Shown here: piece by piece, positions 6,113 to 28,035 of the stretch | Position numbering within the stretch: position 1 is the stretch's first letter | How the letters are laid out: each line of letters opens with the position of its first letter | From: a virus | Lineage: Duplodnaviria > Heunggongvirae > Uroviricota > Caudoviricetes | Reading direction: 5' to 3' (one strand) | IMG/VR virus record: IMGVR_UViG_3300035492_000070 | Length of the DNA: 64,000 bases | Translations under genes and position numbers: made by a program | The notes under the pieces: model-generated | What the model was told of the DNA's origin: nothing | Databases searched by the model: none | What the model saw: the letters and a program-made list of their open reading frames with translations, nothing else

Positions 6113-6159
6113 CCTACTAAATAGTCCTAGTATCCTTCAATAAGAACTAGGACTTTTCC

Positions 6160-8901: not shown

Positions 8902-8917
8902 AATTTACAAAACTTCG

Positions 8918-8950
8918 AAAAAGGGCTTGACATACAGGCCCTTTTCTTTT
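8918..8950 (+). terminator. rho-independent terminator
   Basis: aaaagggc...gccctttt hairpin followed by cttttctttt. Confidence 0.6.
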
Positions 8951-8993
8951 ATCATAATGAAAATTAGTTATGATTGTACCTTAGGAGGTATAT

Positions 8994-9212
8994 ATGAGTG
9001 AAGTAGCAAATATCTTTGTAAATGAAATTCGGAATGGTTTAAGTCAGTATAACGTTAATTTAGATTCCAGAGCGGCAATCGAATTCTTTATACGTCATGA
9101 ATATCAAGTGGCAGTGGATGAAAATATGTATGATGAGTTTATGCTCTACTTTCCGCACTACCATCTGTATAAAGATTATGAATCTGAGATTGTCGAGGCT
9201 CTACTAGCATGA
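8994..9212 (+). CDS. hypothetical protein (72 aa)
   Basis: ORF with SD taggagg 8 nt upstream. Confidence 0.35.
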   Translation: MSEVANIFVNEIRNGLSQYNVNLDSRAAIEFFIRHEYQVAVDENMYDEFMLYFPHYHLYKDYESEIVEALLA

Positions 9213-9943
9213 GGTTAGATGTTCATTCCGATATGCACTTAGAGCTTCAGGATTTCCCTGCATATTTCCTTTTTAATCAAGACTTTGATGTTTTGATTCT
9301 AGCAGGTGACATTGCAGATTATGAGAATTTACCTTGGGCACTAGAGCGTATGCGGGATTTCTGTCCTAACAAGCCAATTCTTTATGTACCTGGTAACCAT
9401 GACTATTATGGTAATGACATTGGTAATATTCAGTTCTATGAGCGAGTGTGTTCCGAATTTGATATTTTCTTAATGGAAAAGAATGAAACAACCATTAATG
9501 GTCAACATTTTGTTGGTTGTACATTATGGTCTAACCTAAGCTCTGTGAATGGGTTTTACGATCAATACGTAGGAAATCAAGTCAAGTCCCGCATTGCCGA
9601 TTTCTACCATATTAAGAACTTTACACTAGATTCAATTTTAGCAAAAGCTCGTGACCATTACCTGTTTTTACAAGAAAAGATTACACCCGAATCTGTCGTT
9701 ATTACACACTTCAGCCCTTTACTGTGTCTTGACAATGAAAGGTTTCCTACAAACGATCTTACGAATTATTTCTGTAACAACTACATGAATCTTTTTGATC
9801 TTAACCCTAAGGCATGGATCTACGGACATACGCACGGTAATAGAAAAGGTAAGTTTGGTAACACAGAAGTAATCACCAATCAACGTGGTTATTTTCGAGA
9901 GTGTGCTGGTGTGTATGACCCTAACTTCATTATAGAGATTTAA
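9209..9943 (+). CDS. metallophosphoesterase
   Basis: DMHLE, AGDIADYEN, GNHDYYG, GHTHG motifs. Confidence 0.6.
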   Translation: MRLDVHSDMHLELQDFPAYFLFNQDFDVLILAGDIADYENLPWALERMRDFCPNKPILYVPGNHDYYGNDIGNIQFYERVCSEFDIFLMEKNETTINGQHFVGCTLWSNLSSVNGFYDQYVGNQVKSRIADFYHIKNFTLDSILAKARDHYLFLQEKITPESVVITHFSPLLCLDNERFPTNDLTNYFCNNYMNLFDLNPKAWIYGHTHGNRKGKFGNTEVITNQRGYFRECAGVYDPNFIIEI

Positions 9944-9944
9944 C

Positions 9945-10586
9945 ATGGCAATTCTTTTTGACTTTGAAACATTGGATAACAAACCAACCGCAATCGTTCT
10001 AGATTTAGCGGTTGTTCATTTCGATGAAAACAAAATTGACAATTTCCAACAACTCGTAAACGACTCTAACAGAATTTTTTATCGTAAATTTGACACCGAT
10101 CAAAAAGGTAGAACCGCAGGTCATTCAACACTTGATTGGTGGAAACAACAAGAAGCAGAAGTAAGAAAAATTCTTAAACCTACACCTAATGATGTCTCAT
10201 TAGAACAGGGTATGCTTGAATTTAAAAGTTGGCTTGAAATGAAACGGCATTCGTTAAAGTGGGATAATGCTTACGTACGAGGACAATCTTTTGACTTTCC
10301 TTTAATGGCTGATATTACAGATAGACTTTTTGATACCTGGGGTTTAGGTTATTCCCTGTTTCCCTGTTCTTTTTGGAATCAGTTTGATGTTAGAACTGCA
10401 TTAAAGTTTGCTTTACATGATATTAAGTTGAAAAAAGTACCAGTAGCCAAAGGAACATTCAACGGGTTCATAAAACACAACGCAATTCATGACTGTGCTA
10501 AGGATGCAATCCTAATACAAACGGTTTTAGGTTATGCTAAAGGCACTGTACCTATTCCTGATTTAAATGATTGTGACTGGATTTAA
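9945..10586 (+). CDS. dexA: exonuclease A (DexA, DEDD 3'-5' exonuclease)
   Basis: FDFETLDNKPTAIVLDLAVVHFD, RGQSFDFPLMADI, HNAIHDCAKDAIL align with T4 DexA. Confidence 0.75.
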   Translation: MAILFDFETLDNKPTAIVLDLAVVHFDENKIDNFQQLVNDSNRIFYRKFDTDQKGRTAGHSTLDWWKQQEAEVRKILKPTPNDVSLEQGMLEFKSWLEMKRHSLKWDNAYVRGQSFDFPLMADITDRLFDTWGLGYSLFPCSFWNQFDVRTALKFALHDIKLKKVPVAKGTFNGFIKHNAIHDCAKDAILIQTVLGYAKGTVPIPDLNDCDWI

Positions 10587-10641
10587 GGTGGTTCAATTCA
10601 ATAAATAGTTCTGAGTTTATTAACTAACAAAGGCTATTTCT

Positions 10642-10986
10642 ATGCTACCCTTAAACGAATTTATTGAACTACAAGAAGATCTTAACTTGGTTCTAGAATC
10701 AGAACAGACTGAATTTACCGATGAACAAATTGAGAAGGCAGAATATTTTGACTTGAAATGGAATCCTGTTTCTGGTGGTACGAAACTTTGCATTTACGAT
10801 GAGTCGGGTGAAGCTTTGGCATTCGTCGAATATCCAGATGAGGACATTGCTATCGAAATGGCATTAGAAATGTTTGATTTCGACGAAGAAGATGTTCGCG
10901 ATATGGAATCTTACCGTTGGGCTAATAGTGACAACCTAGACGACCGTAAATGGGACGCATTACAAGACGACGGAACATCGGAATGA
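10642..10986 (+). CDS. hypothetical acidic protein
   Basis: ORF only. Confidence 0.3.
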   Translation: MLPLNEFIELQEDLNLVLESEQTEFTDEQIEKAEYFDLKWNPVSGGTKLCIYDESGEALAFVEYPDEDIAIEMALEMFDFDEEDVRDMESYRWANSDNLDDRKWDALQDDGTSE

Positions 10987-11315
10987 GGCTACTAATCATT
11001 CCATTAGTAACAATCTTCTTGTTAGCTTGTCAACCCAAGGAAAGTAATATCAACCCTGAATGGGATAGACAAGGACAAGAAATTGTCACCGTGTCTAAGT
11101 TTTATGATAACAAACACCAACTTCACAGTGCTCTAGAGAAAAGGCTAGGTAGAGATATTGATCCTGGTCTAGTTGGCTTGGCTATTATGAGTCCAAATGA
11201 TAACTTCTGCGAAATATTCAGTCTAAAACCTAACCGTATTGACGATGACGCAACTCTAACCTATGGTCACGAGGCACTTCATTGCGTGTACGGTCGCTAC
11301 CATCCCGAAAAATAA
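10983..11315 (+). CDS. small lipoprotein with HExxH motif
   Basis: MRLLIIPLVTIFLLAC lipobox signal; C-terminal YGHEALHCVYG; internal Met start chosen because the lipobox follows immediately. Confidence 0.4.
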   Translation: MRLLIIPLVTIFLLACQPKESNINPEWDRQGQEIVTVSKFYDNKHQLHSALEKRLGRDIDPGLVGLAIMSPNDNFCEIFSLKPNRIDDDATLTYGHEALHCVYGRYHPEK

Positions 11316-11318
11316 ATG

Positions 11319-11371
11319 TTGACAACCTGTTCTAGTTCATATATCGTAAAAGTGTTATGAACTAGAACAGG
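11319..11371 (+). promoter_or_regulatory. sigma70-like promoter overlapped by a perfect 15-bp inverted repeat
   Basis: ttgaca-N17-tatcgt; cctgttctagttcat ... atgaactagaacagg. Confidence 0.35.
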
Positions 11372-11379
11372 ACTTTGTT

Positions 11380-11652
11380 ATGAAAAATATTCAAATTTTA
11401 TCCACTGCTTTACACCACGTTAACCCTTTACACTTAATTCCACTGAAAGATGACTCTTATGACGAGTTCTCTAAAGTCTATCTTTTTAACGTTGACCAAA
11501 TAAGCGCAGCGACTTTGGCGGCTTATCTTACTCGTACTTTTAATGTTGAGCATTACTTACCTAACCTAATTGATGATTGTGGTAAGGTGTTAGAGCTTTA
11601 CATTAACAACGTCACAGAAAAATGTGAACTTCAACTTGACTTGTTGAACTAA
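11380..11652 (+). CDS. hypothetical protein
   Basis: ORF only. Confidence 0.3.
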   Translation: MKNIQILSTALHHVNPLHLIPLKDDSYDEFSKVYLFNVDQISAATLAAYLTRTFNVEHYLPNLIDDCGKVLELYINNVTEKCELQLDLLN

Positions 11653-11700
11653 GTCATTTACCATAGTTTTGTTACTAATAACATGAAGAGGTGAAATTTT

Positions 11701-12234
11701 ATGAAAGGTACAACTAAGTTAATTCGCGATGCTCACGGTCTTATCAACAACCGCGGTAAGTCAAAATACTGGGGTGTCACTACAGGTTTAGACGCAGAGA
11801 AAAATTATGAAGATATGTTTGTTGTATCTTATAAGGCTTTGGATTTAGACCAAACCCATACACTTCGACCGCATCGTTTCCGTTTTACTGAAGCTGATGC
11901 TGCCCGTGTAGCAGCTTATGTTCACGCCAAAGGCCAAATGTTTAAGAATTTATCAAATACTGATTGTATTTTATCAGCTGATGGTAAGTATGTATTTCAA
12001 GTATTCCGTGGGTCCAACGAAGTTTATCGACAGAAATACAAAAATCAAATTCTTTGGAATCCGCCTATTAACGTTACGCTTGTAACAGCAGATGAACCTA
12101 CCGCACAAGTCGAAACTCCAATGTTTGACGCGACTGACTCGTTCCCGTTAATTGTTAAGGTTATTTCTAAAATGCGTTTAACTAACGACCAATGTGACGC
12201 GTTAGCAGCATTAATCCAATCCAAGCGGACCTAA
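11701..12234 (+). CDS. hypothetical protein
   Basis: ORF with SD gaagagg. Confidence 0.35.
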   Translation: MKGTTKLIRDAHGLINNRGKSKYWGVTTGLDAEKNYEDMFVVSYKALDLDQTHTLRPHRFRFTEADAARVAAYVHAKGQMFKNLSNTDCILSADGKYVFQVFRGSNEVYRQKYKNQILWNPPINVTLVTADEPTAQVETPMFDATDSFPLIVKVISKMRLTNDQCDALAALIQSKRT

Positions 12235-12243
12235 ATACAAATG

Positions 12244-12270
12244 AGAGGAGTTGAAGCTCCTCTCATTTTC
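12244..12270 (+). terminator. rho-independent terminator
   Basis: gagaggagttgaagctcctctc + attttctgtt. Confidence 0.6.
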
Positions 12271-12311
12271 TGTTATAAACAGCACAACTGATTCACAAAG
12301 AGGAAAAACAA

Positions 12312-13229
12312 ATGCTGTTATCTGATAAAGAATATCGTTATAGTGAAATATTCGGCCAAACAATTCAGGGCGAGGGTTATTATACAGGTGTGCCCACTGC
12401 TTGGCTTCGTTTGTTTAGCTGTAATTTAGAATGTAAAGGCTTTGGGCAAAAAGACCCCACGGATCCTAGCACTTACGATTTACCTGCCGAAAATCTTGAC
12501 GTGTCTAACATTACTCGCATGGAAGACTTACCTGTATTCGAGCGTGGGTGTGATAGCTCATATTCATGGTCTAAGAAATTCCGTCACTTAGCATATAAAG
12601 CCAATGCTGCTACTATTGCTGAGCGTATCATCGACACTCTTAAAACTGAACATAACCCAGAAGGGTTGTTTAACATGAAAAACGGTGCTGAGATTCATTT
12701 AGCCTTTACTGGCGGTGAACCTATGATGCAACAAGATGCTATTGTTGACGTTTTGTCTTATATGGTTGACATTGACAATTATCCTCGGTTCGTGACTATC
12801 GAAACCAACGGTACTCAACATATTACTCAAAATTTCAAGGACTTTTTTAGTCGTCATTGGGATATTGAGTTGCTTTTTTCTATTAGCCCGAAGCTGTTCA
12901 ACGTTTCAGGTGAAAAAAATAGTAAAGCGATTCGTCCTAAAGTGATTCATGAATACTATGAATTTGCTGATATGGCTTATTTAAAATTCGTTCTAAATGG
13001 CAATGACGCAGCGTGGGCAGAGCTCGATGAAGTTATGAACAGTATTGGGTACAATGAGAGTGGTAAATTTACTCTATACCAATTACCTGTATGGATCATG
13101 CCTGTTGGTGCCACAGTTGAGGGTCAGGAAATTACGGCAGCAACTGTCGCGCGTAAAGCAATTTCACGTGGGTATAACGTAGCAGTTCGCGCCCATACCT
13201 ACTTATTTTCAAATGCAATGGGAACCTAA
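12312..13229 (+). CDS. queE: 7-carboxy-7-deazaguanine synthase QueE (radical SAM)
   Basis: IFGQTIQGEGYYTGVPTAWLRLFSCNLEC matches E. coli QueE N-terminus FQTLQGEGYFTGVPAIFIRLQGC. Confidence 0.8.
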   Translation: MLLSDKEYRYSEIFGQTIQGEGYYTGVPTAWLRLFSCNLECKGFGQKDPTDPSTYDLPAENLDVSNITRMEDLPVFERGCDSSYSWSKKFRHLAYKANAATIAERIIDTLKTEHNPEGLFNMKNGAEIHLAFTGGEPMMQQDAIVDVLSYMVDIDNYPRFVTIETNGTQHITQNFKDFFSRHWDIELLFSISPKLFNVSGEKNSKAIRPKVIHEYYEFADMAYLKFVLNGNDAAWAELDEVMNSIGYNESGKFTLYQLPVWIMPVGATVEGQEITAATVARKAISRGYNVAVRAHTYLFSNAMGT

Positions 13230-13231
13230 AA

Positions 13232-13819
13232 ATGGCTATTCGTGTTAAATCTACAAAAACTTTCCAAAACTTACCTTGCGCTCATGGTCAATATTTTGAT
13301 ATGACTCCTGGTGGCGAACCTGGTCATTGTGCATCGCTGCATGGTTATGACCGTGAAGTTACTTTGACATTCTCTGGTGAGATTGACGAGCATGGTTGGA
13401 TTTACCCGTTCGGTGATTTGAAAGAAGTAAAAAACTTTCTTGAATATTATTTTGACCACGTTACTGTATTGGCAGCAGATGATCCGCGTTTAGAATCTAT
13501 TCCAGAACAGATGTTAATGCCGGGCGGTATTTTAGGCACTCTTCGAGTGTTACCTTACGGGGTGAGCATGGAGATGTCAGCATTATTTGCATGGGAGATG
13601 ATTAACCCATACATTTACCATACCAGTGGTGGTCGAGTATTCTTAGAAAAAGTTGAGTTCCGTGAGCATGATCGTAACTCTGCCTTTATCGAAGTTGATC
13701 AAGAAACCGCTGTAAATCAAGCGAATAAGTTTAAATCTACTGCTAACTTTATGGAATTGAATCCAGTGTGGAATTTCGTTGCTCCTAAGGTAGCAAAAAA
13801 GAATTTAGAAAATTCATAA
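13232..13819 (+). CDS. queD: 6-carboxytetrahydropterin synthase QueD-like
   Basis: HCASLHGY...GEIDEHGWIYPFGDLKEV...FDHV parallels QueD CGRLHGHSF...GEVDPHTGWIIDFAELK...LDHHYL. Confidence 0.7.
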   Translation: MAIRVKSTKTFQNLPCAHGQYFDMTPGGEPGHCASLHGYDREVTLTFSGEIDEHGWIYPFGDLKEVKNFLEYYFDHVTVLAADDPRLESIPEQMLMPGGILGTLRVLPYGVSMEMSALFAWEMINPYIYHTSGGRVFLEKVEFREHDRNSAFIEVDQETAVNQANKFKSTANFMELNPVWNFVAPKVAKKNLENS

Positions 13820-13836
13820 TTTTTTAAAAATAGGTG

Positions 13837-13877
13837 TTGACATGCTATGTCGTAGGTATTAATATTACGACATAGCA
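13837..13877 (+). promoter_or_regulatory. sigma70-like promoter TTGACA-N17-TAATAT with 11-bp palindrome gctatgtcgta/tacgacatagc across the -10
   Basis: seen directly; upstream of the HTH gene. Confidence 0.45.
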
Positions 13878-13900
13878 ACAAACAACCTAAACAACGTGAA

Positions 13901-14341
13901 ATGAGGTACTATACTATGAACACAATCAATACTCCAATCGCACAAGAAGTTAAACTGGCAATCGCAGTAGAGTTCGTAAAAGCACAAACTAAACCAGCAG
14001 CACTAGCTGTCCAGTTTGGTGTTAGTGAGTCAACGGTACGCCGGGCAATTAAAACACTGGAAGCAGAAGCGAAAGCGGTAATTGCACAAGAGCAAGCACC
14101 GAAAAAAGCTAAGCGCGCCAGCAAGGCAGAAGTTATTCCAACTGGCCCTAAAGGTTACAAAGGTCGTAACGGTCGGTGGGGCGTATTGAACGTGATGTTT
14201 GCAAAACACGAAGAATATGCTACACGGGCAGAGCTTTACGAAGCGGTTAACAAAGAGTGCGTAGCAGTGGGTCTAACCAAACTGAATAAAAATAGCTTCC
14301 ACGCAATGTTTTCAATTTGGAAAAGGTCTCAAGCAGTTTAA
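13901..14341 (+). CDS. HTH DNA-binding protein, putative regulator
   Basis: AVQFGVSESTVRRAIKTL helix-turn-helix; basic C-terminus. Confidence 0.4.
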   Translation: MRYYTMNTINTPIAQEVKLAIAVEFVKAQTKPAALAVQFGVSESTVRRAIKTLEAEAKAVIAQEQAPKKAKRASKAEVIPTGPKGYKGRNGRWGVLNVMFAKHEEYATRAELYEAVNKECVAVGLTKLNKNSFHAMFSIWKRSQAV

Positions 14342-14356
14342 AATCAGATATAAATT

Positions 14357-14391
14357 GAAGAAAGGGTCAATAGGCCCTTTCTTATTTTCAA
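14357..14391 (+). terminator. rho-independent terminator
   Basis: gaagaaagggtcaataggccctttctt + attttc; overlaps the ORF-track start of the next gene. Confidence 0.6.
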
Positions 14392-14402
14392 GGAGAAACG
14401 AA

Positions 14403-15677
14403 TTGAATTTCGAGTACGTAGCGAGCGGTCTTGGACATACAAGAATTTTACAAAAATCGGTTGTAGAAGGCGGTGGTGCAGCAAAAATCAACGACATGAT
14501 TTCTTTAATGCAAGGAAAGCACGGTCATGGTTACAGCTGCCTTTTTAATGCACATACAGAAAAAGGTTTTGGTGCCGTTATAGAACGATCATATCCGGGT
14601 TGGTGTTCTGTGCATTCTGACTCAGGTGGTCTACAGATTATCACTCAAGGTTTGACTATTGATGACGCAATGAAAGAGTCGGTTTACGAGTACCAATCTA
14701 AGTGGTCCGACGTAGGTATGAGTTTTGACGAAATCCCTATTCAGTTGACCGGAGAAACTTCTAGTCGAAATGACGTTGACAATCGTTTCTTTGATGATTC
14801 CAATTATTTAGAATATGCCCGTTTAACAGGGGTCAACATTACCAAACAGATAGAATACTTTCTTAATAACCCAACCAATAGATGTAAGCCTTTATTGATT
14901 ATTCAGGGCAATTGCGTAGACACATATCGACGTTGGAATGATATGCTACTTAAAACAATTCCTTCAGACTTACATCAGTATATCGGTGGTATTTCTTTAG
15001 GGGCGGCGGGCTTAGGTACAGGACCATTAGAAGACATTGAACGCATGTTCGCTTTCACTCAATTAGAAGCCCCTGACCATGTCAAATCTAAGCTTCACAT
15101 CCTAGGCGTTGGTTCATCGGTTCGGTTGTTGCCTGCGATTATGCTTAAACGGAATGGCTTAATTGCTGATGTACATACCTCGTATGATTCCACTACCCAT
15201 ACCTCAGGTGTGAATATGGGCAATTTCTATTCATACGCAGAGAAGCGATTGACGTCATTCCCAATTAATTACTCTAACCAAACGCGATATGTTCTTGATA
15301 ACATCAAAGAGTATTTTGGTTTAGACTTCGACCCACAATTCTATATTGACTCTTTAAAATCAAACAATGCAAAATTCAGTGCTAAATATGGTGACTGTAA
15401 TGAATTGGCTGATAAGCGCGCACAGGCAATATTTGGTTTCGTTGGCGCGTCAATTTTAAATTTTACTCGTTATATTGACGAATTGGTTAAAGACGAGTAT
15501 ACTTTAACTGAACTGATACAGCGTAAGCGTTTACTCCCTATGCTACATCTACAAGACGTCGTTGATATGGCGTCATGGAAGAAATGGGAATCGAATTTTG
15601 GTAAGCGCGTCCCTAGTAAACGGGTCAAGAAAGTTTCCGATAAACAAGGTTCAAATTCGTTATTTGATTTTTTATAA
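14403..15677 (+). CDS. dpdA: DpdA-like 7-deazaguanine DNA transglycosylase (TGT family)
   Basis: HSDSGGLQ (TGT DSGGFQ), LHILGVGSS (TGT LMGVGTP), ADVHTSYDS (TGT DMFDCV region); TTG start with SD aaggag chosen because ORF-track start lies inside the upstream terminator. Confidence 0.65.
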   Translation: MNFEYVASGLGHTRILQKSVVEGGGAAKINDMISLMQGKHGHGYSCLFNAHTEKGFGAVIERSYPGWCSVHSDSGGLQIITQGLTIDDAMKESVYEYQSKWSDVGMSFDEIPIQLTGETSSRNDVDNRFFDDSNYLEYARLTGVNITKQIEYFLNNPTNRCKPLLIIQGNCVDTYRRWNDMLLKTIPSDLHQYIGGISLGAAGLGTGPLEDIERMFAFTQLEAPDHVKSKLHILGVGSSVRLLPAIMLKRNGLIADVHTSYDSTTHTSGVNMGNFYSYAEKRLTSFPINYSNQTRYVLDNIKEYFGLDFDPQFYIDSLKSNNAKFSAKYGDCNELADKRAQAIFGFVGASILNFTRYIDELVKDEYTLTELIQRKRLLPMLHLQDVVDMASWKKWESNFGKRVPSKRVKKVSDKQGSNSLFDFL

Positions 15678-15679
15678 GG

Positions 15680-16078
15680 TTGAACGTTATGTTAAAAAAG
15701 AAAAATATGATGATAGCAGTAACCTTCCAAAAAGAAGGCATTCACTGCTATCCACAAGCATTAACTGATCCTAAACTTGCTACTGGTAATGCCGATGATG
15801 TAAGTTTTTTAGGTTACCCTCATAGACATATTTTTTATTTCAAAGTAAAGATTCAAGTTTTTGAAGAGGATCGTGATTTAGAGTTTATTCAAGTTAAAAG
15901 ACAACTAGAAAACTGGTATAACACGAATACATTACAATTAGATTATAAGTCATGTGAAATGATTTCTGATGATTTAGCTCTAAAAATTCAGGACACTTGG
16001 CCTGGAAGAAATGTAGAGATTCATGTATATGAGGATAACGAAAACGGTTCCGAATCATTTTATGAATGGGTTGAGTAA
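15680..16078 (+). CDS. hypothetical protein within deazaguanine cluster
   Basis: ORF only; HCYP...GYPHRH. Confidence 0.3.
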   Translation: MNVMLKKKNMMIAVTFQKEGIHCYPQALTDPKLATGNADDVSFLGYPHRHIFYFKVKIQVFEEDRDLEFIQVKRQLENWYNTNTLQLDYKSCEMISDDLALKIQDTWPGRNVEIHVYEDNENGSESFYEWVE

Positions 16079-17409
16079 TGGCTAAGAAAAGATTATTATA
16101 TGTTATTGCATCTCAACATTTAAAAGTGGCTGGTGGTATTGGGCAATTTCTACGTGGCTTACAGGACTTTCAATATGAAATGGATCTGATTGTTGACGTT
16201 GCTATGGACCAAGCACCGAATGAAAAACAAAAATCATTTGTCCGGGGTAAGATTGTTTACCCCGATCAATCTTTATCTTACGGTGACCATAGAAAGTTTT
16301 TCGTGTTCAAAGATTCAATTTGTCATGAGTTGGTTACTAATTTTAGAAATGTTATCACTAAAGCATTTAAACATAACCTTTATACCCATGTTGTGCTGAA
16401 TACACCTGAAGCAAACATCGCAGCACAATCCTTAGGGTTAAAGAATGTGAAAGTTATTACTTACTCGCATCAAGAGTCTTACACCTTAGATGTCCCTGCT
16501 TGCTACTCTAGCCCTACATTCAGTCCCGAGTATCTGCATATTATCCGAAATCTTGATGGTATCGGTATTGGTTGTCAATCAGCATGGGTAGAGTCATGTG
16601 TGAAAAAGTTTAGTCCTAATGTAGAGTCTTATGTACTACCATTCTTTTTCCCTAAAGACGAGACCCCTACAGTCAACCAAAATGGGACAGGTGTACTTTT
16701 CATTGGTCGATGGGAAGATCGTAAAAACCCCAAGGCGTTCATTAAGCTGATCGCTGATACTAAGCTACCTGCTAAAGTCTTGACTAATAAAACTGGTCAT
16801 AAGAAATTTGAAGAAGCTTTAAAGGAAATAGATGCAACATATGAAATCCGTTCTGATATTATAGGCCAAGAGAAAACAGATTTTATTTCTTCTGCTAAAA
16901 TTGCATTTTGTCCTAATAAAGTAGAAACCGGGCCTTACTCTGTTTTTGAGTCTATGCTAAGAATGCCAACGGTTGTCCCGTCCAATGTAGGTTGGATCAA
17001 TAACTTCAACGGTTACCCTGTTGTTATCGTAGATTTAAAATCCAGCGACTGCGCGAGCAAGGTTCTAGAGTTATACAACTCAAATAAACCTTACAGTCCG
17101 CCTAAAATCGAAGATCTAAATAATGTGGCACTAGAAGCTTGGTCGGAATTCATTAACTGTGTGTATGATGAGACTAAATCTGTGATGTCTTATAAGAACG
17201 CTATTATGAGTCAAATACAGACAGGTAAACAGTTCAAACCTATTGACTTAATCCCTGATTCAATCTACAATCAGACTTCACTGAACCAACTGACCGAAGT
17301 TTTCTTATGTAACGATGTTAACGTGTCGTATGATGAAAATAATACCTATATTTCAATGGGTGATATAAAACCGGAGTCAGTTGAAACTGAGATAGTGACA
17401 TTATTTTAA
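16078..17409 (+). CDS. GT-B glycosyltransferase (GT4-like)
   Basis: FIGRWEDRKNPKAFIKL; E-x7-E motif ETGPYSVFESM. Confidence 0.6.
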   Translation: MAKKRLLYVIASQHLKVAGGIGQFLRGLQDFQYEMDLIVDVAMDQAPNEKQKSFVRGKIVYPDQSLSYGDHRKFFVFKDSICHELVTNFRNVITKAFKHNLYTHVVLNTPEANIAAQSLGLKNVKVITYSHQESYTLDVPACYSSPTFSPEYLHIIRNLDGIGIGCQSAWVESCVKKFSPNVESYVLPFFFPKDETPTVNQNGTGVLFIGRWEDRKNPKAFIKLIADTKLPAKVLTNKTGHKKFEEALKEIDATYEIRSDIIGQEKTDFISSAKIAFCPNKVETGPYSVFESMLRMPTVVPSNVGWINNFNGYPVVIVDLKSSDCASKVLELYNSNKPYSPPKIEDLNNVALEAWSEFINCVYDETKSVMSYKNAIMSQIQTGKQFKPIDLIPDSIYNQTSLNQLTEVFLCNDVNVSYDENNTYISMGDIKPESVETEIVTLF

Positions 17410-17417
17410 GGAATGGT

Positions 17418-18434
17418 ATGAGTAAAATATTTTTGGTTGAGTTGGAGAGTGTACCTACACGGTATACTTTCTATTGGAAAACGCATTTGCCTAAAATGCT
17501 CAAAGAAAAAACGGGTAAAGAAATAGTAGTTATTTCTGGTAATGACGGTTCCGGTATCGAGGCAACGACCGGTGCGTTTTTAAACTTTTCAGAAACGAAC
17601 AAATTCAAATCAGAGCAGGCCATAGAAATATCAAATTCATTCACTCAAGGTAAAGTTGAGGATGGCGATATATTCTTATTCGCTGATGCCTGGAACCCCG
17701 TGATTATCCAAACCCGTTATATGATTGATCTATTAGGGGTTGATGCTAAAATTGCGGGTATATGGCATGCAGGTAGTTATGACCCCGCGGATTTTCTGGG
17801 TCGGTTAATCGACAATAAAGAATGGTCTTATTCCTTTGAGCGTTCATTATACCATTCTATGGACTTCAACTTTTTTGCTACCGCTTTTCATATGCAAATG
17901 TTTAACTATACTTTGGGTATAGAGTCTTATAAATCGTATCTTACAGGGTTTCCAATGGAATATATGCTTGACGTATGTTCTAACAACCCAGAAAAGGATT
18001 TGATCGTATTCCCTCACCGACCGTCAGTAGAAAAGAACATTGATGTGTTTCGTAAGGTGGCTGAACTGTTACCACAATATAAATTTGTAGTCTGTCAAGA
18101 TAAGAAATTGACGAAAACAGAATACTACGATATAATGTCAAGAGCAAAAATAGTATTTTCTGCAAATACACAAGAAACATTGGGCATTTCTATGATGGAA
18201 GGATTATTATCAGGTGCCCGTATTATGGTCCCTGATTGCTTGTCTTACAATGAAATGTATGATACCGCGTTTAAATATGATCCTAGTTATAGAGAAAACC
18301 CTGAGGCTTTGGCATCTATCATAAAATCTATAATGGATAAACCTTTAGATTCTAACTCAATCCGTAAGGAATCTATGAGGGTTTATAAAGATTATTTCAC
18401 GGGCGATACTATGTATCGTATTTTATCAAATTGA
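17418..18434 (+). CDS. GT-B glycosyltransferase, second copy
   Basis: E-x7-E motif ETLGISMMEGLLSGARIMVP; FPHRPSVEKNIDVF. Confidence 0.5.
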   Translation: MSKIFLVELESVPTRYTFYWKTHLPKMLKEKTGKEIVVISGNDGSGIEATTGAFLNFSETNKFKSEQAIEISNSFTQGKVEDGDIFLFADAWNPVIIQTRYMIDLLGVDAKIAGIWHAGSYDPADFLGRLIDNKEWSYSFERSLYHSMDFNFFATAFHMQMFNYTLGIESYKSYLTGFPMEYMLDVCSNNPEKDLIVFPHRPSVEKNIDVFRKVAELLPQYKFVVCQDKKLTKTEYYDIMSRAKIVFSANTQETLGISMMEGLLSGARIMVPDCLSYNEMYDTAFKYDPSYRENPEALASIIKSIMDKPLDSNSIRKESMRVYKDYFTGDTMYRILSN

Positions 18435-18486
18435 CAATTAACAAGAGTCATGTTTTAATATGACTCTTTCAACAGAAGGAAATAAC

Positions 18487-19164
18487 ATGAGTAAAGTTAA
18501 CGCTGAACTAGGCAAAGAAGTCCATGCTTACCTGGTATCTAAAGGTATTGAAACCCCTATGGTTAACGTGTCGATGGATGAGCAAGATAAAATTGCCTAC
18601 ATTGAAAGTAAAATGACAGACGTCATGACTGCGTTAGGTTTAGACCTAAAAGACGATTCTTTAATCGAAACACCTAAACGCATTGCCAAGATGTATGTTC
18701 AGGAATTGTTCTACGGTTTAGACTATAACAAGTTCCCGAAAGCAACTACCGTAGAAAACAAAATGAACTACGATGAAATGGTTATTGAGCGATGCACGAT
18801 TAAATCGGTATGTGAACACCACTTCGTTTATTTTGGTACTGCACACAATACAGAAAAGCTGGGTTGTTATGTTGCCTATATGCCTAAAGATAAAGTATTG
18901 GGCCTAAGCAAGATTAACAGAATTGTTGACTTCTTCGCACGTCGACCACAGATTCAAGAGCGTTTGACTGCCCAAATTGCTTATGCACTTGAGTATATTT
19001 TAGGCACTGAAGATATTGCGGTTGTTATGAAGTCACAGCACTTCTGCGTATTAACTCGCGGCGTACAAGATGCGGACAGTAATTGTACCACGTCTTATGT
19101 CGGTGGCCGTTTCCGTCAAGACCCTGCACTGAAAGCAGAGTTAATGTCATTCCTGAACAAGTAA
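18487..19164 (+). CDS. folE: GTP cyclohydrolase I FolE
   Basis: TPKRIAKMY, CEHHFV zinc motif, GLSKINRIVDFFARRPQIQERLT; ATG with SD aaggaa chosen (track start 18460). Confidence 0.85.
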   Translation: MSKVNAELGKEVHAYLVSKGIETPMVNVSMDEQDKIAYIESKMTDVMTALGLDLKDDSLIETPKRIAKMYVQELFYGLDYNKFPKATTVENKMNYDEMVIERCTIKSVCEHHFVYFGTAHNTEKLGCYVAYMPKDKVLGLSKINRIVDFFARRPQIQERLTAQIAYALEYILGTEDIAVVMKSQHFCVLTRGVQDADSNCTTSYVGGRFRQDPALKAELMSFLNK

Positions 19165-19173
19165 GAGGTTATC

Positions 19174-19863
19174 ATGAATTTGAATCGTTTAACTGAACAG
19201 ATTAATGAAGTTGTCAAATGGAACTTGGTTTCGCTTAATGGTAAACATGATTTTAGTGACGATAAAAAAGCACGTCAGAATGATTTTACTATTTCCGAAG
19301 TAAAAGAAACACTGGCTGCTATTGCCCAGGACGATATTAAAGAAGTATTCGACGGTTTAGGTGACGTATTGGTTACCTACGCATATCGAGTGTTCTTACA
19401 ATACGAAGAAGCACCTACCTTACACGAACTCGACGAGTTTAACTCTATAGACACTTTTAACCAGTGCGAATGGAAGTGGATAAACGTAATTCAGTCCCTA
19501 AACACTATTGCTTGGGCTATCGACTGTAATTTTCATTGGCACGATTCAAGTGAATCTTGGTATAACCTAACAGAGTTGCTAGCTACCGCTGAACAGGTTT
19601 ATACTCAAATGGATATTCATGATGCCATTGACGAAGTGTTGCGTTCTAACTGGAGTAAATTTGTCAAGTTAGATGTTGGTACTGATATTAATGCGCTTGA
19701 AAGTGAATGTCGTTGGATTGAAGCTAACCGTGGTAAGAGCAACGTTTTCTATTCTATTGTTGAATTGGATGACGGTTCTCGTTATGCTGTATTCCGTGAC
19801 GATCACGGTAAAGGCAAAATTATGAAGCCTTCCGTATTCCAAGAGGTAGTTCTACCTCTGTAA
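19174..19863 (+). CDS. MazG-like NTP pyrophosphohydrolase
   Basis: SEVKETLAAIAQDD-IKEVFDGLGDVLVTYAY fits the MazG E-x2-E...E-x-D-GDVL motif. Confidence 0.55.
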   Translation: MNLNRLTEQINEVVKWNLVSLNGKHDFSDDKKARQNDFTISEVKETLAAIAQDDIKEVFDGLGDVLVTYAYRVFLQYEEAPTLHELDEFNSIDTFNQCEWKWINVIQSLNTIAWAIDCNFHWHDSSESWYNLTELLATAEQVYTQMDIHDAIDEVLRSNWSKFVKLDVGTDINALESECRWIEANRGKSNVFYSIVELDDGSRYAVFRDDHGKGKIMKPSVFQEVVLPL

Positions 19864-19987
19864 TTATAAAGTCGCTTAGAGTTAACAAATCTAATTCTAA
19901 GCGACTCTTATCATGAAGTAATACCTACGTTCGTATTTTCATTAAAAGTCTGTTAGAATTAGCGACAGGCTTTTCTAGGAGTATATA

Positions 19988-21528
19988 ATGAGTTTAGCAA
20001 ACGGTGTACTCTACACCTATTACAAACAGTGGGGAAATAAGATTCTATTCCGTTACAGAAAGAATCGTGTATCTCATACCACTATGGTTGATTTCTACAA
20101 ACCTTCCCTATTCATAAACGCGCAAAACAATGAGCCTGACGCGTACTCTATATTCGATGTTCCTTTAAGTCGTAAGCAGTTTGACTCTATCAAAGAAGCT
20201 AAAGGCTTTGTTGATACTTACAAAGACGTTGAGGGAATGGAGATTCATGGTAACTCTAACTTTGCAAATCAGTTTATTATTGATTTGTATGAAGGAAAGA
20301 TGCCTGAGTTTACAGTGAATGATATTCGCCAATGTATTCTAGATATTGAGGTTGATAGTCCTGATGGATTTCCTGAACCCGCTAAAGCTGACTGGCCTAT
20401 CAACGGTGTAACCATTTATGACAATTTCACAGATACATTCTATGCTATAGGTGACGTTGATTATGTTCATGATGTTAACCACAGTGATATAGGCAAATTA
20501 AATGTTCATTATACTCGTTGCTATAACGAGATTGAAATATTAAAAGCAATGCTTGAAAATATTTCTTTGTTTCAATACGACTTTACTTCGGGATGGAACT
20601 CGGGTAAATTTGATATGCCTTATATTGTTAACCGTTGTTATAAGATTTTAGGTGAGAAGTATACGGTTGACAAATTATCACCTTTTGGTAACATTCGTGT
20701 ATATTCATCGTATGATGACTTTGGTGGAGAAACCGTACAGGTTGATATTCAAGGTTTGCCTCATTTAGACTACCTTGACCTGTATAAGAAGCATATTTTC
20801 ACGCCACGTGAATCTTATCGGTTAGACTTTATTGCTGAATGTGAGTTAGGCGAAAACAAATTATCATACGAAGAAGCAGGGTCATTATCGAATTTGTATC
20901 GTACTGATCCACAGCGATTCCAGGAATATAATATACAGGACGTAAACCTAATTCGTAGATTGGATAACAAATTAGGCCTTTTCTCTATCACCTACACTCT
21001 TGCTTACTATACCTTGAGTAATTTTGAAGATACTTTAGGCACTACAAAAGCATGGGAGCAATTAGTTGCTAAATTCCTATACACAAAGAACAAAGTGCCA
21101 TTGTTCAAACAAAAGAAATCTCAGTCAAGACCGTTTGAGGGTGGTTATGTAAAAGATCCTATTGTAGGTAAGCATGATTGGGTATTTTCAATCGACTTAA
21201 ACTCGCTATACCCTCATATAGAAATGCAAGTGAACATTGGCCCTGAAACTCATATCCCAAGAGATCAATTACCCGTTGAAGTGGCCGAGTTAAAATCCAA
21301 ATATACCTTGGATGATTTAGTTTCAGGTAAAGCGGATTTAAGCCCTTTACAGAAACATGACATTTCTATGGCTGCTAACTTTGAATGTTACCGCAGAGAC
21401 AAAAAGAGTTTCTTCTCCGAAATTAAGTTCATGTTATACGCTGAACGAAAAATGTATAAGAAGAAAATGTTAGCGGCTGAGCAACAACTTGTTGACATTG
21501 AACAGGAGTTAAAGAGAAGAGGATTATC
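19988..21528 (+). CDS. 43: family B DNA polymerase gp43, exon 1 (exonuclease and N-terminal polymerase domains); 3' boundary approximate
   Basis: DIEVDS exo motif; ends ...KKKMLAAEQQLVDIEQELKRRG just before polymerase motif B. Confidence 0.8.
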
Positions 21529-23066
21529 ATAATGGAAGAATATATTGTCAAAGGCCTTGAAAGCATTTCGTGTAATAATTTTCTACTTGAAAGATACATG
21601 AAATTTATACGTTATCGTATCAGTAACCCTTTGACATCGGGTATATACGAAAAACATCACATATTACCAAAATGCATCTTTCCAGAATATGCTAAAGTTA
21701 AGTCGAATATAGTCAAATTAAAACTTCGGGAGCATTATTTAATTCACTGGATATTATTAAAAATGACATACAAACCATCTTTATGTTTTGCATTTAATGT
21801 AATGAAAAGGACAATACCAGGAGAAACTAAAAATTCAGCTCTATACGAGATGTCAAGAAAATACATTAGTAAAGCGGTATCTGAATCGAATAATGGTAGG
21901 CCTATGTCATATGAAAATAAAATAAAGGTATCAAAAAGAACCAAAGATACAGTGATAGTCAAAGATAAAGATGGAAACACTTTTAGAGTGAGTGTATTCG
22001 ATGAAAGATATAAATCTGGTGAATTAGTGTTCTATAGAAAAGGGCTTAAACATAAGAAAACTACTATAGAAAAAATGCTGAAAAATTCGTCTAAAGGTAA
22101 AGTTGCACATTACAACATACACACAAACGAGATTCGATATTTTACAATCGACGATAATGTAGATGATTGTTGGGTTAAAGGTGTTTCACAATACAATTTA
22201 GAACAGTATAAGTTATTAGCTGTACCTAAATTGAAAAATAAAATATGGTACTACAATAATAAAACAGGAAAACATAAAAGGTTTGATGTAAATGATCGTC
22301 CATCGAGTGACTGGGTGAAAGGAAGAAAATCTGGGTATAACCAAGGGATGAATGTAATGAATTCTAAAATTAAGGTGGTAGACTTGAAATACAGAGCAGT
22401 AAGAAAAGTTTTTCCTCATGAGGTTAGTTGGTTTCACGGCAAAGATAACGGTACATCCACCGATAAAACTGTTATATTTACTTTTAATATGGTTATATTC
22501 GTGGCACGATCTAGCCTAGATGAATATATGAAATCTCATAAACTTTACCCTACTATCACAACTTCCATAGAATCGAATATGAAGTATAGGGTACCTTCAC
22601 CTCATCATAACAATAAATTAGAGGTCAAGAACTTTAGGTATACTCATAAAGGAAAAACTCTTGAAGAGTTAGGAGTTAAATGTTACAATTTAACAGATTT
22701 TGAACTGGATAAACACGAGGGATATACTGTATATGGCAACTGATTATTCAAATATGAGTGATAATGAGTTATTATCACTCAAAAATAAATTAGAAAACGA
22801 ACAGTCGTTTTTTAATAATCTTCAAATGGCAATGAAGATCCTTTAATTAAGGAGGCTTCGAGTAGTGATACTCGTCGAAAATCGGGTGAATTGCTGGAAA
22901 CCTAAAGGATAGTAAATTATCCCATGGCAATCAGCAGCCAAGCCTCATGGATGAGGAAGGTTCAGAGACTAGCGGGGCTTGAGAGCTTAATAACCGCATT
23001 AGCGCCCGACATCTACATATGATAGATGATGATATAGTCCAATCCTTAGAGAAATCTAAGCCCCAG
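21526..23066 (+). mobile_element. group I intron (IA-type core) in the DNA polymerase gene with HNH ORF; splice sites approximate
   Basis: core elements P aattgctggaaa (22889-22900), Q aatcagcagcc (22929-39), R gttcagagactag (22960-72), S atgatatagtcc (23029-40); motif B resumes in frame at about 23050-23068. Confidence 0.7.
21532..22743 (+). CDS. intron-encoded HNH homing endonuclease with C-terminal RYKSGELV-type repeats
   Basis: EKHHILPK...N...EHYLIHW HNH motif; lies wholly inside the intron upstream of the catalytic core. Confidence 0.7.
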   Translation: MEEYIVKGLESISCNNFLLERYMKFIRYRISNPLTSGIYEKHHILPKCIFPEYAKVKSNIVKLKLREHYLIHWILLKMTYKPSLCFAFNVMKRTIPGETKNSALYEMSRKYISKAVSESNNGRPMSYENKIKVSKRTKDTVIVKDKDGNTFRVSVFDERYKSGELVFYRKGLKHKKTTIEKMLKNSSKGKVAHYNIHTNEIRYFTIDDNVDDCWVKGVSQYNLEQYKLLAVPKLKNKIWYYNNKTGKHKRFDVNDRPSSDWVKGRKSGYNQGMNVMNSKIKVVDLKYRAVRKVFPHEVSWFHGKDNGTSTDKTVIFTFNMVIFVARSSLDEYMKSHKLYPTITTSIESNMKYRVPSPHHNNKLEVKNFRYTHKGKTLEELGVKCYNLTDFELDKHEGYTVYGN

Positions 23067-24060
23067 ATTGCTAAATGGGGGCTACGGGGCACTCGCCAAC
23101 GAGCATTTCCTATACTTTATGATTGAAAACGCAGAGGCAATTACTCTTACAGGACAAATGGTTAACCGATATACGTCCACACGAGTAGATTCGTTCATCA
23201 TGAAAACGTTAGGGTTAGAAGATACTGTATGGATATACAGTGATACGGATTCAGGAATTTTTTCATTAAAAGCGTTTCATGATAATGTTCTATCAAATGT
23301 AAATGATGTACAGAAAAAGGTTGATGTGATTGACAAGTTTATTAAGACAACTATTGACCCCTATGTTAACTCTGTTACCGAGGATATCAAGAGTTACCTA
23401 AACTCAGTAGAAAATAAAATGGTTTGGGAAAGAGAGGTTATCGCGGAATCTGCAGTGTTCGTAGCCAAGAAACGTTATGCTATGGCTGTATGGGATTCTG
23501 AGGGTGTAAGATTTGACCCTGAACCGAAATTCAAAATCATGGGACTTGAATCTGTACGCTCATCGACCCCTGCATGGGCAAGGAAGTTTTTGAAGGAATG
23601 TTACAAAACGGTTTTAATGGGGACAGAGCAACAAATTCAGGATATGGTAGTAGAGTTCAAGAAAAAGTTCTACGAATATACACCTAGTGAAATAGCTACT
23701 CCTCGTGGCGTTAACGGTTTAGAAAAGTTCCACGACAAGACCTCCATTTATATTAAAGGAACACCTAAGCACGTCAAGGCGGCATTGGTTCATAATTGGT
23801 TGGTTGATAAAAAAGGAATGTCAACTGAAAAGATTAAGAGCGGCAATAAAATTAAATATATTGATTTGACCCGACCTAATCCCATTAACAGTGATGTAAT
23901 TGGATTCTCTGTTCATTTGCCTAAAGAGTTTGGTTTGGATTCTTACGTGGATTATAAAAGTATATTTGACACTGCTTTTATGTCACCCTTAAGAATATTC
24001 TTGAATGTGGTAGGGTGGACGGAAGAGCCGATAGTGTCATTAGAAGACTTCTTTTCTTGA
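23050..24060 (+). CDS. 43: family B DNA polymerase gp43, exon 2 (motifs B and C); 5' boundary approximate
   Basis: LLNGGYGALANEHF (Kx3NSxYG-like motif B); IYSDTDS (motif C YGDTDS). Confidence 0.8.
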   Translation, partial: RNLSPRLLNGGYGALANEHFLYFMIENAEAITLTGQMVNRYTSTRVDSFIMKTLGLEDTVWIYSDTDSGIFSLKAFHDNVLSNVNDVQKKVDVIDKFIKTTIDPYVNSVTEDIKSYLNSVENKMVWEREVIAESAVFVAKKRYAMAVWDSEGVRFDPEPKFKIMGLESVRSSTPAWARKFLKECYKTVLMGTEQQIQDMVVEFKKKFYEYTPSEIATPRGVNGLEKFHDKTSIYIKGTPKHVKAALVHNWLVDKKGMSTEKIKSGNKIKYIDLTRPNPINSDVIGFSVHLPKEFGLDSYVDYKSIFDTAFMSPLRIFLNVVGWTEEPIVSLEDFFS

Positions 24061-27970: not shown

Positions 27971-28035
27971 ATAGCCCATTTTATAAATAATCTTTAGTTG
28001 GTGGTAATCCTAAAGAGGTTTTAAGAATGGGCTAT
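27971..28035 (+). promoter_or_regulatory. hairpin pairing atagcccat with atgggctat (includes the endonuclease start codon); loop holds late promoter TATAAATA (27982-27989)
   Basis: seen in sequence; reverse-complement arms 27971-79 and 28027-35. Confidence 0.5.

Follow-up and report, generated by a model that had tools for sequence, protein, structure and literature searches.

Of the guanine modifications known from phage DNA, the 7-deazaguanines are the principal ones, with eight derivatives described so far. To our knowledge, none of these derivatives carries a sugar, and we know of no glycosylated purine in any DNA. Here, we describe a cluster of nine genes at positions 12312-19863 of a 64,000-nucleotide stretch of viral DNA (IMG/VR record IMGVR_UViG_3300035492_000070, Caudoviricetes; the whole stretch is hereafter called the window), in which two glycosyltransferase (GT) genes, GT1 and GT2, are embedded among genes for the synthesis and insertion of a 7-deazaguanine. 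We propose, as a rather probable reading of the comparisons reported below, that the DNA of this phage would carry glycosylated 7-deazaguanine, in a mono- or di-glycosylated form.

The founding case of the pathway in question is Cellulophaga phage phiST, in which 100% of G is replaced by 2'-deoxy-7-deazaguanosine (dDG) (Cui, Hutinet et al, NAR 2023, PMC10516641). In phages with FolE, QueD, QueE and DpdA and without QueC, the same study proposed that DpdL, defined by LxxxHRHxF in place of the QueD motif CxxxHGH, is the decarboxylase of 7-carboxy-7-deazaguanine (CDG) that gives 7-deazaguanine; three His and two Glu were reported as common to QueD and DpdL, glycosylation was not mentioned, and DpdL plus DpdA of Acidovorax phage ACP17, or of phiST, gave no dDG on their own in E. 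coli (PMC10516641). The window resembles phiST in encoding FolE, QueD, QueE, a DpdL with LxxxHRHxF, a TGT-fold transglycosylase and a MazG-like gene beside folE, and in having no QueC (PMC10516641). It differs in that the DpdA3 of phiST has no detectable similarity to the window DpdA (E > 1), the two DpdL proteins are 30% identical, the MazG-like genes are not detectably related, and the window has two embedded GT-B genes whereas phiST has none.

Other described systems share single features with this locus. The glucosylation of 5-hydroxymethylcytosine (hmC) in T4 and the arabinosylated 5-hydroxycytosine (5hoC) of RB69 and DLP3 offer the same T4-like backbone with GT-B genes in the replication region (PMC13326640), and also the same logic, in which a non-canonical base is covered with sugars after replication. 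The base expected in the window is, however, a purine analogue introduced by base exchange and not a pyrimidine made as a nucleotide; moreover, the window has no thymidylate-synthase homologue, and its GTs are unrelated in sequence to the T4 beta-glucosyltransferase (beta-GT). The bacterial Dpd system (DpdA/B/C with the restriction proteins DpdD-K) likewise relies on a TGT-fold enzyme that inserts a deazaguanine into DNA, but the window lacks DpdB and DpdC and has GTs, and its substrate should not be preQ0 or 7-amido-7-deazaguanine (ADG), since QueC is absent and DpdL is present. Mannosyl- and galactosyl-queuosine are found in eukaryotic tRNA, and QTMAN, a GT4-type enzyme, mannosylates queuosine within a polynucleotide, the acceptor being the cyclopentenediol of queuosine in tRNA. 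For huimycin and dapiramicin, a GT glycosylates a deazapurine base at its 2-amino group, and HuiG uses the free base as acceptor, namely the N2 amine of O6-methylated preQ0 (bioRxiv 10.64898/2026.04.15.718813). Both cases show that 7-deazaguanine derivatives can serve GTs as acceptors. The window GTs are demonstrably related to these enzymes by the GT-B/GT4 fold only, and neither the queuosine nor the huimycin/dapiramicin reactions involve DNA.

The nine genes are tightly packed on the + strand, between a terminator-like hairpin (12239-12268) and the DNA polymerase gene:

12312-13229, + strand: queE, CDG synthase of the radical S-adenosylmethionine type (PHROG 2076, QueE-like, E 6.7e-55)
13232-13819, + strand: queD, 6-carboxytetrahydropterin (CPH4) synthase with the PTPS fold (Pfam PTPS 4.5e-15; PHROG QueD-like 6.3e-31; CxxxHGY in the alignment)
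13901-14341, + strand: small helix-turn-helix (HTH) DNA-binding protein (N-terminus matching GntR at 3.7e-6 and HTH_11 at 9.8e-6 in Pfam, at threshold)
14355-15677, + strand: dpdA, TGT-fold DNA guanine transglycosylase (440 aa as called; probable true start 14403)
15680-16078, + strand: dpdL, QueD-like, predicted CDG decarboxylase, 132 aa (LGYPHRHIF at residues 44-52)
16078-17409, + strand: GT1, GT4-type GT-B glycosyltransferase (ExxxxxxxE at 283-291; C-terminal extension of ~100 aa ending EIVTLF)
17418-18434, + strand: GT2, GT4-type GT-B glycosyltransferase and partner of DpdL (ExxxxxxxE at 253-261; acidic, without a clamp-binding-type tail)
18460-19164, + strand: folE, GTP cyclohydrolase I, first step from GTP (Pfam GTP_cyclohydroI 1.8e-53)
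19174-19863, + strand: MazG-like nucleotide pyrophosphohydrolase (PHROG 671, E 6.5e-18; Pfam MazG 18.3 bits, cut-off 22)

A previous sequence-only reading of this DNA had described the nine open reading frames (ORFs) as a 7-deazaguanine DNA-modification cluster with a DpdA/TGT-like transglycosylase, two GT-B glycosyltransferases with E-x7-E motifs and no QueC, in which a 132-aa unknown protein was embedded and the pathway was expected to stop at CDG unless QueC lay elsewhere in the genome. All nine ORFs are present on the + strand with the coordinates listed above, and the nature of the cluster is corroborated by the Pfam and PHROG matches of FolE, QueD and QueE and by the TGT fold of DpdA. 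The identification of the transglycosylase also stands on fold comparison and on its DSGG motif, and that of the two GTs on Pfam family matches for GT1 and on the AlphaFold2 (AF2) fold for GT2. The lack of QueC is upheld within the 64-kb window and an 8.9-kb rightward extension of it. In contrast, the 132-aa protein can now be named DpdL, from LGYPHRHIF and homology, and with a predicted CDG decarboxylase in the cluster the pathway is no longer expected to halt at CDG.

The evidence on DpdL is as follows. In tblastn comparisons, the window protein is 52-60% identical to the ACP17 (52%), PA5oct and Phosso homologues, 37-65% identical to DpdL homologues other than that of phiST, and 30% identical to phiST DpdL (CGPG_00067) over 85% of the query (E 4e-6). 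An alignment with the phiST and ACP17 proteins shows three invariant His (H22, H48, H50) and three invariant Glu (E68, E93, E118). No QueC homologue was found in the 64-kb window by tblastn with the QueC of Pseudomonas phage pf16, none was flagged in the 8.9-kb extension, and none occurs in the 160 related GT2/DpdL loci defined below. Because DpdL is present, this lack of QueC is to be expected and the pathway need not end at CDG; as far as is known at present, the base should be 7-deazaguanine or one derived from it, and not CDG. In the class of loci that contain GTs, DpdL may create a sugar acceptor rather than act as a simple decarboxylase.

The 440-aa DpdA protein gave no Pfam match, and no PDB match was obtained with its single sequence or with an eight-sequence profile. 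Its AF2 model (predicted local distance difference test, pLDDT, 92.5) retrieved with Foldseek a list of PDB structures whose top 23 all belong to the TGT family (TGT, QTRT1, ArcTGT and DpdA; E from 2.8e-7), and the DNA preQ0 insertase DpdA (7ui4) is among these matches. DSGG stands at residue 89, a motif that holds a key active-site Asp in Z. mobilis TGT, and DSGGLQ, FDEIP and SYDSTTHT are invariant in the family alignment. Judging by the predicted fold, the protein is a TGT-fold DpdA, of a family found in T4-like phages. It is 31-39% identical to the DpdA of BUCT-ZZ01, ACP17, pf16 and Xanthomonas phage X1, with which Stenotrophomonas phage proteins also group, and 38% identical over ~60% of the query to Schizotequatrovirus proteins (Vibrio phages phi-ST2, ValKK3 and others). 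Membership of the DpdA3 type, that of phiST and CP220 with complete replacement of G, was considered and rejected: blastp to phiST CGPG_00065 gave E values of 1.8-3.1 and no significant alignment, and tblastn with the window DpdA matched no Cellulophaga or Campylobacter sequence. The group from T4-like phages is probably of the DpdA2 type, that of Vibrio phages nt-1 and VH7D. The true start of dpdA is probably at 14403, because a Logan contig protein (P0176) is 100% identical over 424 aa.

The GT1 family has as invariants GRxExxK (G210, R211, E213, K216), E283 and E291; Pfam Glycos_transf_1 (PF00534) is matched by 29 of its 33 members, one member has a marginal QTMAN_N match (E 0.01), and a PDB sequence search with GT1 was uninformative. 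Homologues of GT1 sit within the deazaguanine clusters of BUCT-ZZ01 and of contigs L182 and L183. In GT2, R201, K206 and E253 are invariant and E261 is conserved at 90% or more. The AF2 model of GT2 (pLDDT 91.4) best matches GlgM, BshA, PimB', MshA and SenB in the PDB (E from 7.9e-11; template-modelling score 0.6-0.73). With an isoelectric point (pI) of 5.3, within the 4.9-5.7 of GT2 proteins, GT2 is far more acidic than T4 beta-GT (pI 9.05); the pI is at best weak evidence on DNA binding, since DpdA itself is not basic. Genes for the synthesis of nucleoside diphosphate (NDP) sugars were not found in the window, and related clusters carry phosphomannomutase (PMM), cytidylyl/guanylyltransferase-like and GDP-mannose-dehydratase-like genes.

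The most telling aspect of the comparison is the pairing of GT2 with DpdL. It was assessed in 160 viral loci, made up of GT2-anchored and DpdL-anchored IMG/VR contigs; the GT2-anchored set comprises the best 80 of at least 563 IMG/VR stretches that encode GT2 relatives, and the counts for the DpdL-anchored set refer to the 68 loci with enough downstream sequence. DpdL lies directly upstream of GT2 in 77 of the 80 GT2-anchored loci, which also encode a long TGT-like protein (70), FolE (61), QueE (48) and, in many cases, NDP-sugar genes. Starting from DpdL, a GT2-type gene is found in 60 of 68 loci (43 GT2 and 17 of a divergent subfamily), at a median of 296 bp downstream; two of the eight exceptions carry a DpdA3 of phiST type. 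The divergent subfamily consists of proteins of ~390-407 aa from marine viral contigs, 20-22% identical to GT2, with a C-terminus of the form ...YR..V....KY and a gene right after DpdL (for example L096 10604-11767, L104 10798-11973, L129 11359-12558 and L154 10608-11831).

The GT2-DpdL pair recurs among T4-like phages, jumbo phages (PA5oct, Phosso) and bacterial islands in at least nine gene orders and with three DpdA types, these orders being those of the window, the metagenomic relative L014, ACP17, BUCT-ZZ01, X1, PA5oct, Phosso, the marine contigs L010/L183 and islands of Magnetospirillum type. In cultured phages the order is DpdA-GT2-DpdL in ACP17, DpdL-GT2 in Phosso and TGT-like-GT2-DpdL in PA5oct and its relatives; Xanthomonas X1 has GT2-like-DpdA-DpdL, and BUCT-ZZ01 has FolE-GT1-DpdA-DpdL-GT2-like. 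PA5oct (Wroclawvirus) resembles the window in its GT2 (44% identical), its DpdL (55%), its QueE and a TGT-like protein beside a split polymerase gene; it differs in that its transglycosylase is of the long, 540-aa type with marginal similarity (E 0.001), and no GT1 homologue was seen in the region examined. PA5oct DNA withstands enzymes whose restriction sites contain G, and it is a target of nucleases that sense modified G, the structure of its base being undetermined (PMC12191111), and Iyer et al. 2021 listed its deazaguanine system without the GT (PMC7824862).

A comparison with the nearest relatives of the window reveals a module swap. Pseudomonas phage pf16, the nearest cultured relative (58% identity in the DNA polymerase, 38% in QueE), has the frame QueE..QueD..HTH..FolE-DpdA-[cassette]-MazG-pol, in which the cassette is a QueF-like gene, QueC and a glutamine amidotransferase, and its deazaguanine region contains no DpdL and no GT. 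In the window, DpdL, GT1 and GT2 replace this cassette. L014, which is closer than pf16 (44% in QueE), has FolE-DpdA-DpdL-(GT-A-like)-GT2-MazG-pol. By megablast, none of 50,697 phage records proved to be a relative of the cluster at the nucleotide level. In pf16 (L002 6649-9005), gp77 begins MCGIF, as in class-II glutamine amidotransferases, and lies beside the QueC gp78, while gp79 is a second 'GTP cyclohydrolase', probably QueF-like. This arrangement resembles a split Gat-QueC, so the base of pf16 is probably one derived from preQ0, for example dG+ or dPreQ1.

The pair is also found in bacteria. A bare triad of GT2, DpdL and a long TGT occurs in cultured Magnetospirillum, Methylobacterium and Aurantimonas. 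In Magnetospirillum aberrantis SpK (L206; NZ_JAAIYP010000038.1, 5173-14337), the triad is accompanied by QueD and a GT-A-like gene; its neighbours include an integrase, a HEPN protein and a CoiA-like nuclease, and FolE and QueE are missing from its surroundings. The further alphaproteobacterial contigs L205, L207-L210, L213, L215 and L217 carry GT2h-DpdL-long TGT-like genes. The association of these islands with a nuclease and an integrase recalls the bacterial Dpd system, and the triad could be either a prophage remnant or a form of the module that cells use in the manner of a restriction-modification system. In actinomycete loci, a DpdL-like gene lies beside a DpdA3-type gene, with no GT. 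There are thus two classes: the phiST class, with DpdA3, a divergent DpdL, no GT and plain dDG as measured, and a much larger class with DpdL and a GT2-type gene, to which the window belongs.

Additional genes accompany the module in other members. A phosphoribosyltransferase is present in 66 of the 80 GT2-anchored loci (L015-L094) and none is present in the window; its role may be to salvage the guanine that is released or to form a nucleotide of deazaguanine. We did not adopt it as a sign of a nucleotide-level, pre-replicative route, since nearly every locus encodes a TGT-type protein and no such transferase is found in the window; guanine salvage explains its presence equally well. Marine clusters resembling those of jumbo phages (e.g. 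L010 4110-6279 and 11368-12848) add HIT, 2-oxoglutarate (2OG)-Fe(II) oxygenase and GDP-sugar-type genes, the latter comprising cupin, cytidylyltransferase-like, PMM and epimerase/dehydratase genes. The 2OG-Fe(II) oxygenase could create a hydroxyl acceptor.

The C-termini of several window proteins suggest where the enzymes act. The SLDFLFG-type end of the T4 and RB69 DNA polymerases is a sliding-clamp-binding peptide, and T4 gp55 also binds the clamp. T4 gp43 ends in SLDFLFG; in the window, the polymerase (23068-24060) ends in SLEDFFS, gp55 in GLLEFLE, DpdA in SNSLFDFL and GT1 in EIVTLF. Clamp-tail-like C-termini were noted for the window ORFs 14355-15677, 16078-17409, 23068-24060, 2178-2819 and 56-883. 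Ends of this kind are frequent among relatives of DpdA (93 of 120) and long relatives of GT1 (37 of 42) and absent among those of GT2 (0 of 120). BUCT-ZZ01 provides one example, GSLEDFFND, and others are SLFEF and SLFSFE; the long GT1 forms end in motifs of SLFEF/SLEDFF type, and the GT-A-like protein that takes the place of GT1 in L014 ends in DVITLM. This distribution suggests that DpdA and GT1 are tethered to the clamp, from which we infer that their substrate would be DNA, at the replisome or behind it, and that of GT2 a soluble one.

The region is best explained as one operon-like unit for QueC-independent, DpdL-type 7-deazaguanine DNA modification, of which both GTs would be integral parts, and this explanation together with the sugar-bearing product is one that we hold to be reasonably probable. 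We propose that FolE, QueD and QueE would convert GTP into CDG by the established pathway, and that DpdL would convert CDG into 7-deazaguanine unsubstituted at C7, as predicted by Cui et al. 2023. The first sugar would then come from GT2, which would most likely act on the free base or on a precursor and link the sugar at or through C7. TGT-type pockets accommodate bulky groups at C7, such as that of queuine, and not changes at N1, N2 or O6. DpdA, probably tethered to a gp45-type clamp through its SLFDFL peptide, would exchange guanine in DNA for the deazaguanine base, and GT1 may add or extend a sugar on the DNA. The resulting mono- or di-glycosylated 7-deazaguanine would shield the DNA from restriction and other nucleases. 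The position of the cluster beside the DNA polymerase gene supports DNA as the target. It is also suggestive that the reconstitution with ACP17 DpdL and DpdA failed, which fits a need for the GT, whose gene lies between dpdL and dpdA in ACP17. The same scheme can be extended to all carriers of DpdL and GT2, bacterial islands and phages alike, including therapeutic jumbo phages of the PA5oct type, with a GT2 sugar at or through C7, insertion by clamp-tethered DpdA and extension by a clamp-tethered GT1 or GT-A-like protein; this generalisation is more tentative, and we place it slightly short of an even prospect. That the cluster marks an undescribed class of DNA base seems to us about an even matter, perhaps somewhat better.

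Several observations weigh against the proposal of a glycosylated base. The two closest GT1 homologues (L013 10001-11377 and L181 10001-11368; 49-51% identical) have no deazaguanine genes within 10 kb. They end in SVFDSLFEM, and their neighbours include a DNA ligase and a CTP_transf_like protein of 500 aa; GTs of GT1 type with clamp tails may serve other DNA modifications too. The clamp role of the tails is itself assigned by resemblance alone. The 7-deazaguanine base has no hydroxyl, which leaves the acceptor of an O-glycoside unaccounted for; a C- or N-glycosidic linkage would then be required, unusual for a GT4-type enzyme, unless the product of DpdL is something other than plain 7-deazaguanine. 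DpdL does not in itself imply a sugar, since phiST has DpdL, no GT and plain dDG. Many of the 160 viral contigs come from related marine phages, so the counts are not those of independent events, and the part of the genome inspected comprises the 64-kb window and the 8.9-kb extension. No published chemistry was found for any GT-containing member. In the literature consulted, which did not cover the 2024 de Crécy-Lagard review, we found no glycosylated deazaguanine in DNA and nothing that connects glycosyltransferases with DpdL or with any 7-deazaguanine pathway of DNA.

It could be argued that the final DNA holds plain dDG as in phiST, the GTs belonging to the pathway and leaving no sugar behind. 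They could, for example, form a glycosyl or carrier intermediate that exists only transiently and that decarboxylation or the delivery of the base would need, or they could detoxify or recycle released guanine or the deazaguanine base. In phiST, FolE, QueD, QueE, DpdL and DpdA go with 100% dDG (PMC10516641), and GT2, acidic and without a clamp tail, resembles the small-molecule GT4 enzymes BshA, MshA, GlgM and SenB; the missing hydroxyl on 7-deazaguanine and the free-base traffic suggested by the phosphoribosyltransferase in 66 of 80 loci point the same way. However, phiST and the actinomycete DpdA3-type loci do without a GT, dedicated NDP-sugar genes in many clusters would be a large cost for a catalytic intermediate, and the polymerase-like tails of GT1 and of the L014 GT-A-like protein suggest action on DNA. 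We consider an outcome of plain dDG unlikely, though to be taken seriously. The GTs could also act on surface polysaccharides of the host (lipopolysaccharide or capsule), on phage proteins or on another cellular glycan. The best structural matches are indeed generic GT4 enzymes of envelope or metabolite pathways (PimB', TarM, PglA, BshA), the JGI annotation reads 'glycosyltransferase involved in cell wall biosynthesis', the homologues nearest to GT1 are found away from deazaguanine clusters, and clusters of phage GT and NDP-sugar genes were read as surface-polysaccharide modification by Iyer et al. 2021 (PMC7824862), similar clusters having been proposed to act thus in cyanophages and jumbo phages. 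Such a role is hard to reconcile with the near-obligate adjacency of GT2 and DpdL across unrelated backbones, the placement in a replication module beside the DNA polymerase, the clamp-type tail of GT1, the minimal bacterial triad of GT2, DpdL and DpdA adjoining a nuclease, and the lack of GTs in the QueC-type relative pf16, and we regard it as the least credible of the explanations discussed here, with very little weight.

The sequence-only reading had left a choice between a sugar-decorated deazaguanine and a second, sugar-based modification of another base. In the latter case, two independent modifications would be clustered by coincidence, and the GTs would act on a hydroxyl-bearing base such as 5-hydroxymethylcytosine, 5-hydroxycytosine or 5-hydroxymethyluracil. 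This is a T4-like phage, and T4-like phages classically glucosylate hmC or arabinosylate 5hoC (PMC13326640); the window encodes a deoxynucleoside monophosphate (dNMP) kinase and a dCMP deaminase, and at least 45 kb of the genome lies outside the DNA inspected. Yet pf16 shares the dNMP kinase and has no GT, no thymidylate-synthase homologue was found in the 64-kb window, and no such Pfam family occurs among the genes of the 8.9-kb extension. A gp42-like thymidylate-synthase homologue, QueC and QueF are each absent from all 160 GT2/DpdL loci. The complete ACP17 genome has ThyX only, with no ThyA- or gp42-like and no beta-GT-like gene, and its GT2 homologue is the only detectable GT. Neither GT1 nor GT2 has tblastn similarity to T4 beta-GT, the T4 alpha- and beta-GTs are absent from the top 50 structural matches of GT2, and the bacterial islands carry only GT2, DpdL and DpdA. 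We therefore disfavour a second modified base, no gene for hmC or 5hoC synthesis having been found near any of these loci or in the complete ACP17 genome, and judge it quite improbable. The sugar-decorated deazaguanine gains strong comparative support from the GT2-DpdL adjacency, the clamp tails of DpdA and GT1 and the lack of an hmC/5hoC route, and remains a prediction.

The unit is bounded and controlled by the following elements:

12239-12268, + strand: intrinsic-terminator-like hairpin, a 13-bp stem followed by a T-rich tail, which closes the upstream unit just 5' of queE
13837-13865, + strand: sigma-70-type promoter, TTGACA-17-TAATAT, overlapped by the inverted repeat 13843-13877
19870-19906, + strand: hairpin after the last gene, an 11-bp stem (AGTCGCTTAGA ... 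TCTAAGCGACT) read from the sequence, a possible end of the unit

The last hairpin was not called by the terminator scan, because its T-run is weak. A palindrome over the HTH promoter had been pointed out earlier, and it proved to be a perfect 12-nt inverted repeat (13843-13854 / 13866-13877) whose half-site is unique in the window. The repeat is a probable operator of the HTH protein, and the promoter probably heads a transcription unit HTH-dpdA-dpdL-GT1-GT2-folE-mazG, so that the HTH protein would repress its own promoter and thereby the genes from dpdA to mazG. Homologues of the HTH protein stand at the head of the matching gene block in L014 (44%) and in pf16 (gp82, 26%). The palindrome is not kept 5' of the homologues in L014, pf16 and L015, where the promoter alone is conserved.

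The MazG-like gene had been credited with the clearing of a competing dNTP, a suggestion that found no specific support. Its product is 35-38% identical to pf16 gp76 and to a 244-aa protein of L014, both at the equivalent position beside the polymerase, and a PDB sequence search returned no match. The gene adjoins the DNA polymerase in L014 and also in pf16, which has QueC and no GTs, and is absent from ~158 of the 160 other DpdL/GT2 loci. A function as a gp56-like dCTPase was rejected, given the absence of similarity to T4 gp56 and the synteny with pf16. It appears to be a lineage-specific backbone neighbour of the polymerase, with an uncertain role in the pathway.

The wider window is that of a T4-like myovirus, with the gp55 late sigma factor, gp46/gp47, an Alt-like ADP-ribosyltransferase, DexA, gp43, a gp1-type dNMP kinase, UvsX, gp41, baseplate proteins, dCMP deaminase and topoisomerase II. 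A 37.9-kb Logan contig (L176) is identical to window DNA, and L184 provides the 8.9-kb rightward extension. A homing-endonuclease-like ORF of 403 aa (21532-22743) interrupts the DNA polymerase gene and separates its N-terminal part (19988-21532) from its C-terminal part (23068-24060); the PA5oct polymerase is similarly split. The gp41-type helicase is seemingly split as well, ORF 26582-27967 covering profile positions 159-523 and ORF 29132-29749 positions 522-588, with a 387-aa ORF (28027-29190) between the two, and the topoisomerase II genes (61222-63885; L184 7046-13379) are broken up by inserted ORFs, one piece past the window containing an intein-splicing domain. From these cases, the replication genes of this genome look heavily invaded by mobile elements. 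In the 913-aa protein at 6160-8901, the C-terminal third resembles Alt-like RNA polymerase ADP-ribosyltransferases, and the first ~600 residues have no assignment.

The comparison leads from a single cluster to a general claim: a dedicated GT almost always accompanies DpdL, which had until now been associated with plain 7-deazaguanine alone, and it does so in hundreds of viral contigs, in cultured phages (ACP17, PA5oct/Paride-like, Phosso, Xanthomonas X1, BUCT-ZZ01) and in bacterial islands. If the proposal is true, the product would be a purine analogue with a sugar, of which, as far as we know, no earlier case has been described in DNA, and its formation would explain why reconstitution with DpdL and DpdA alone failed. 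The tethering of DNA-modifying enzymes to the sliding clamp offers a possible route to complete modification. The proposal also suggests what the 'modified G' of PA5oct-like phages could be, a group with relatives under study as killers of dormant Pseudomonas, and, if true, it implies that defence nucleases and glycosylases that depend on modification would have new substrates.

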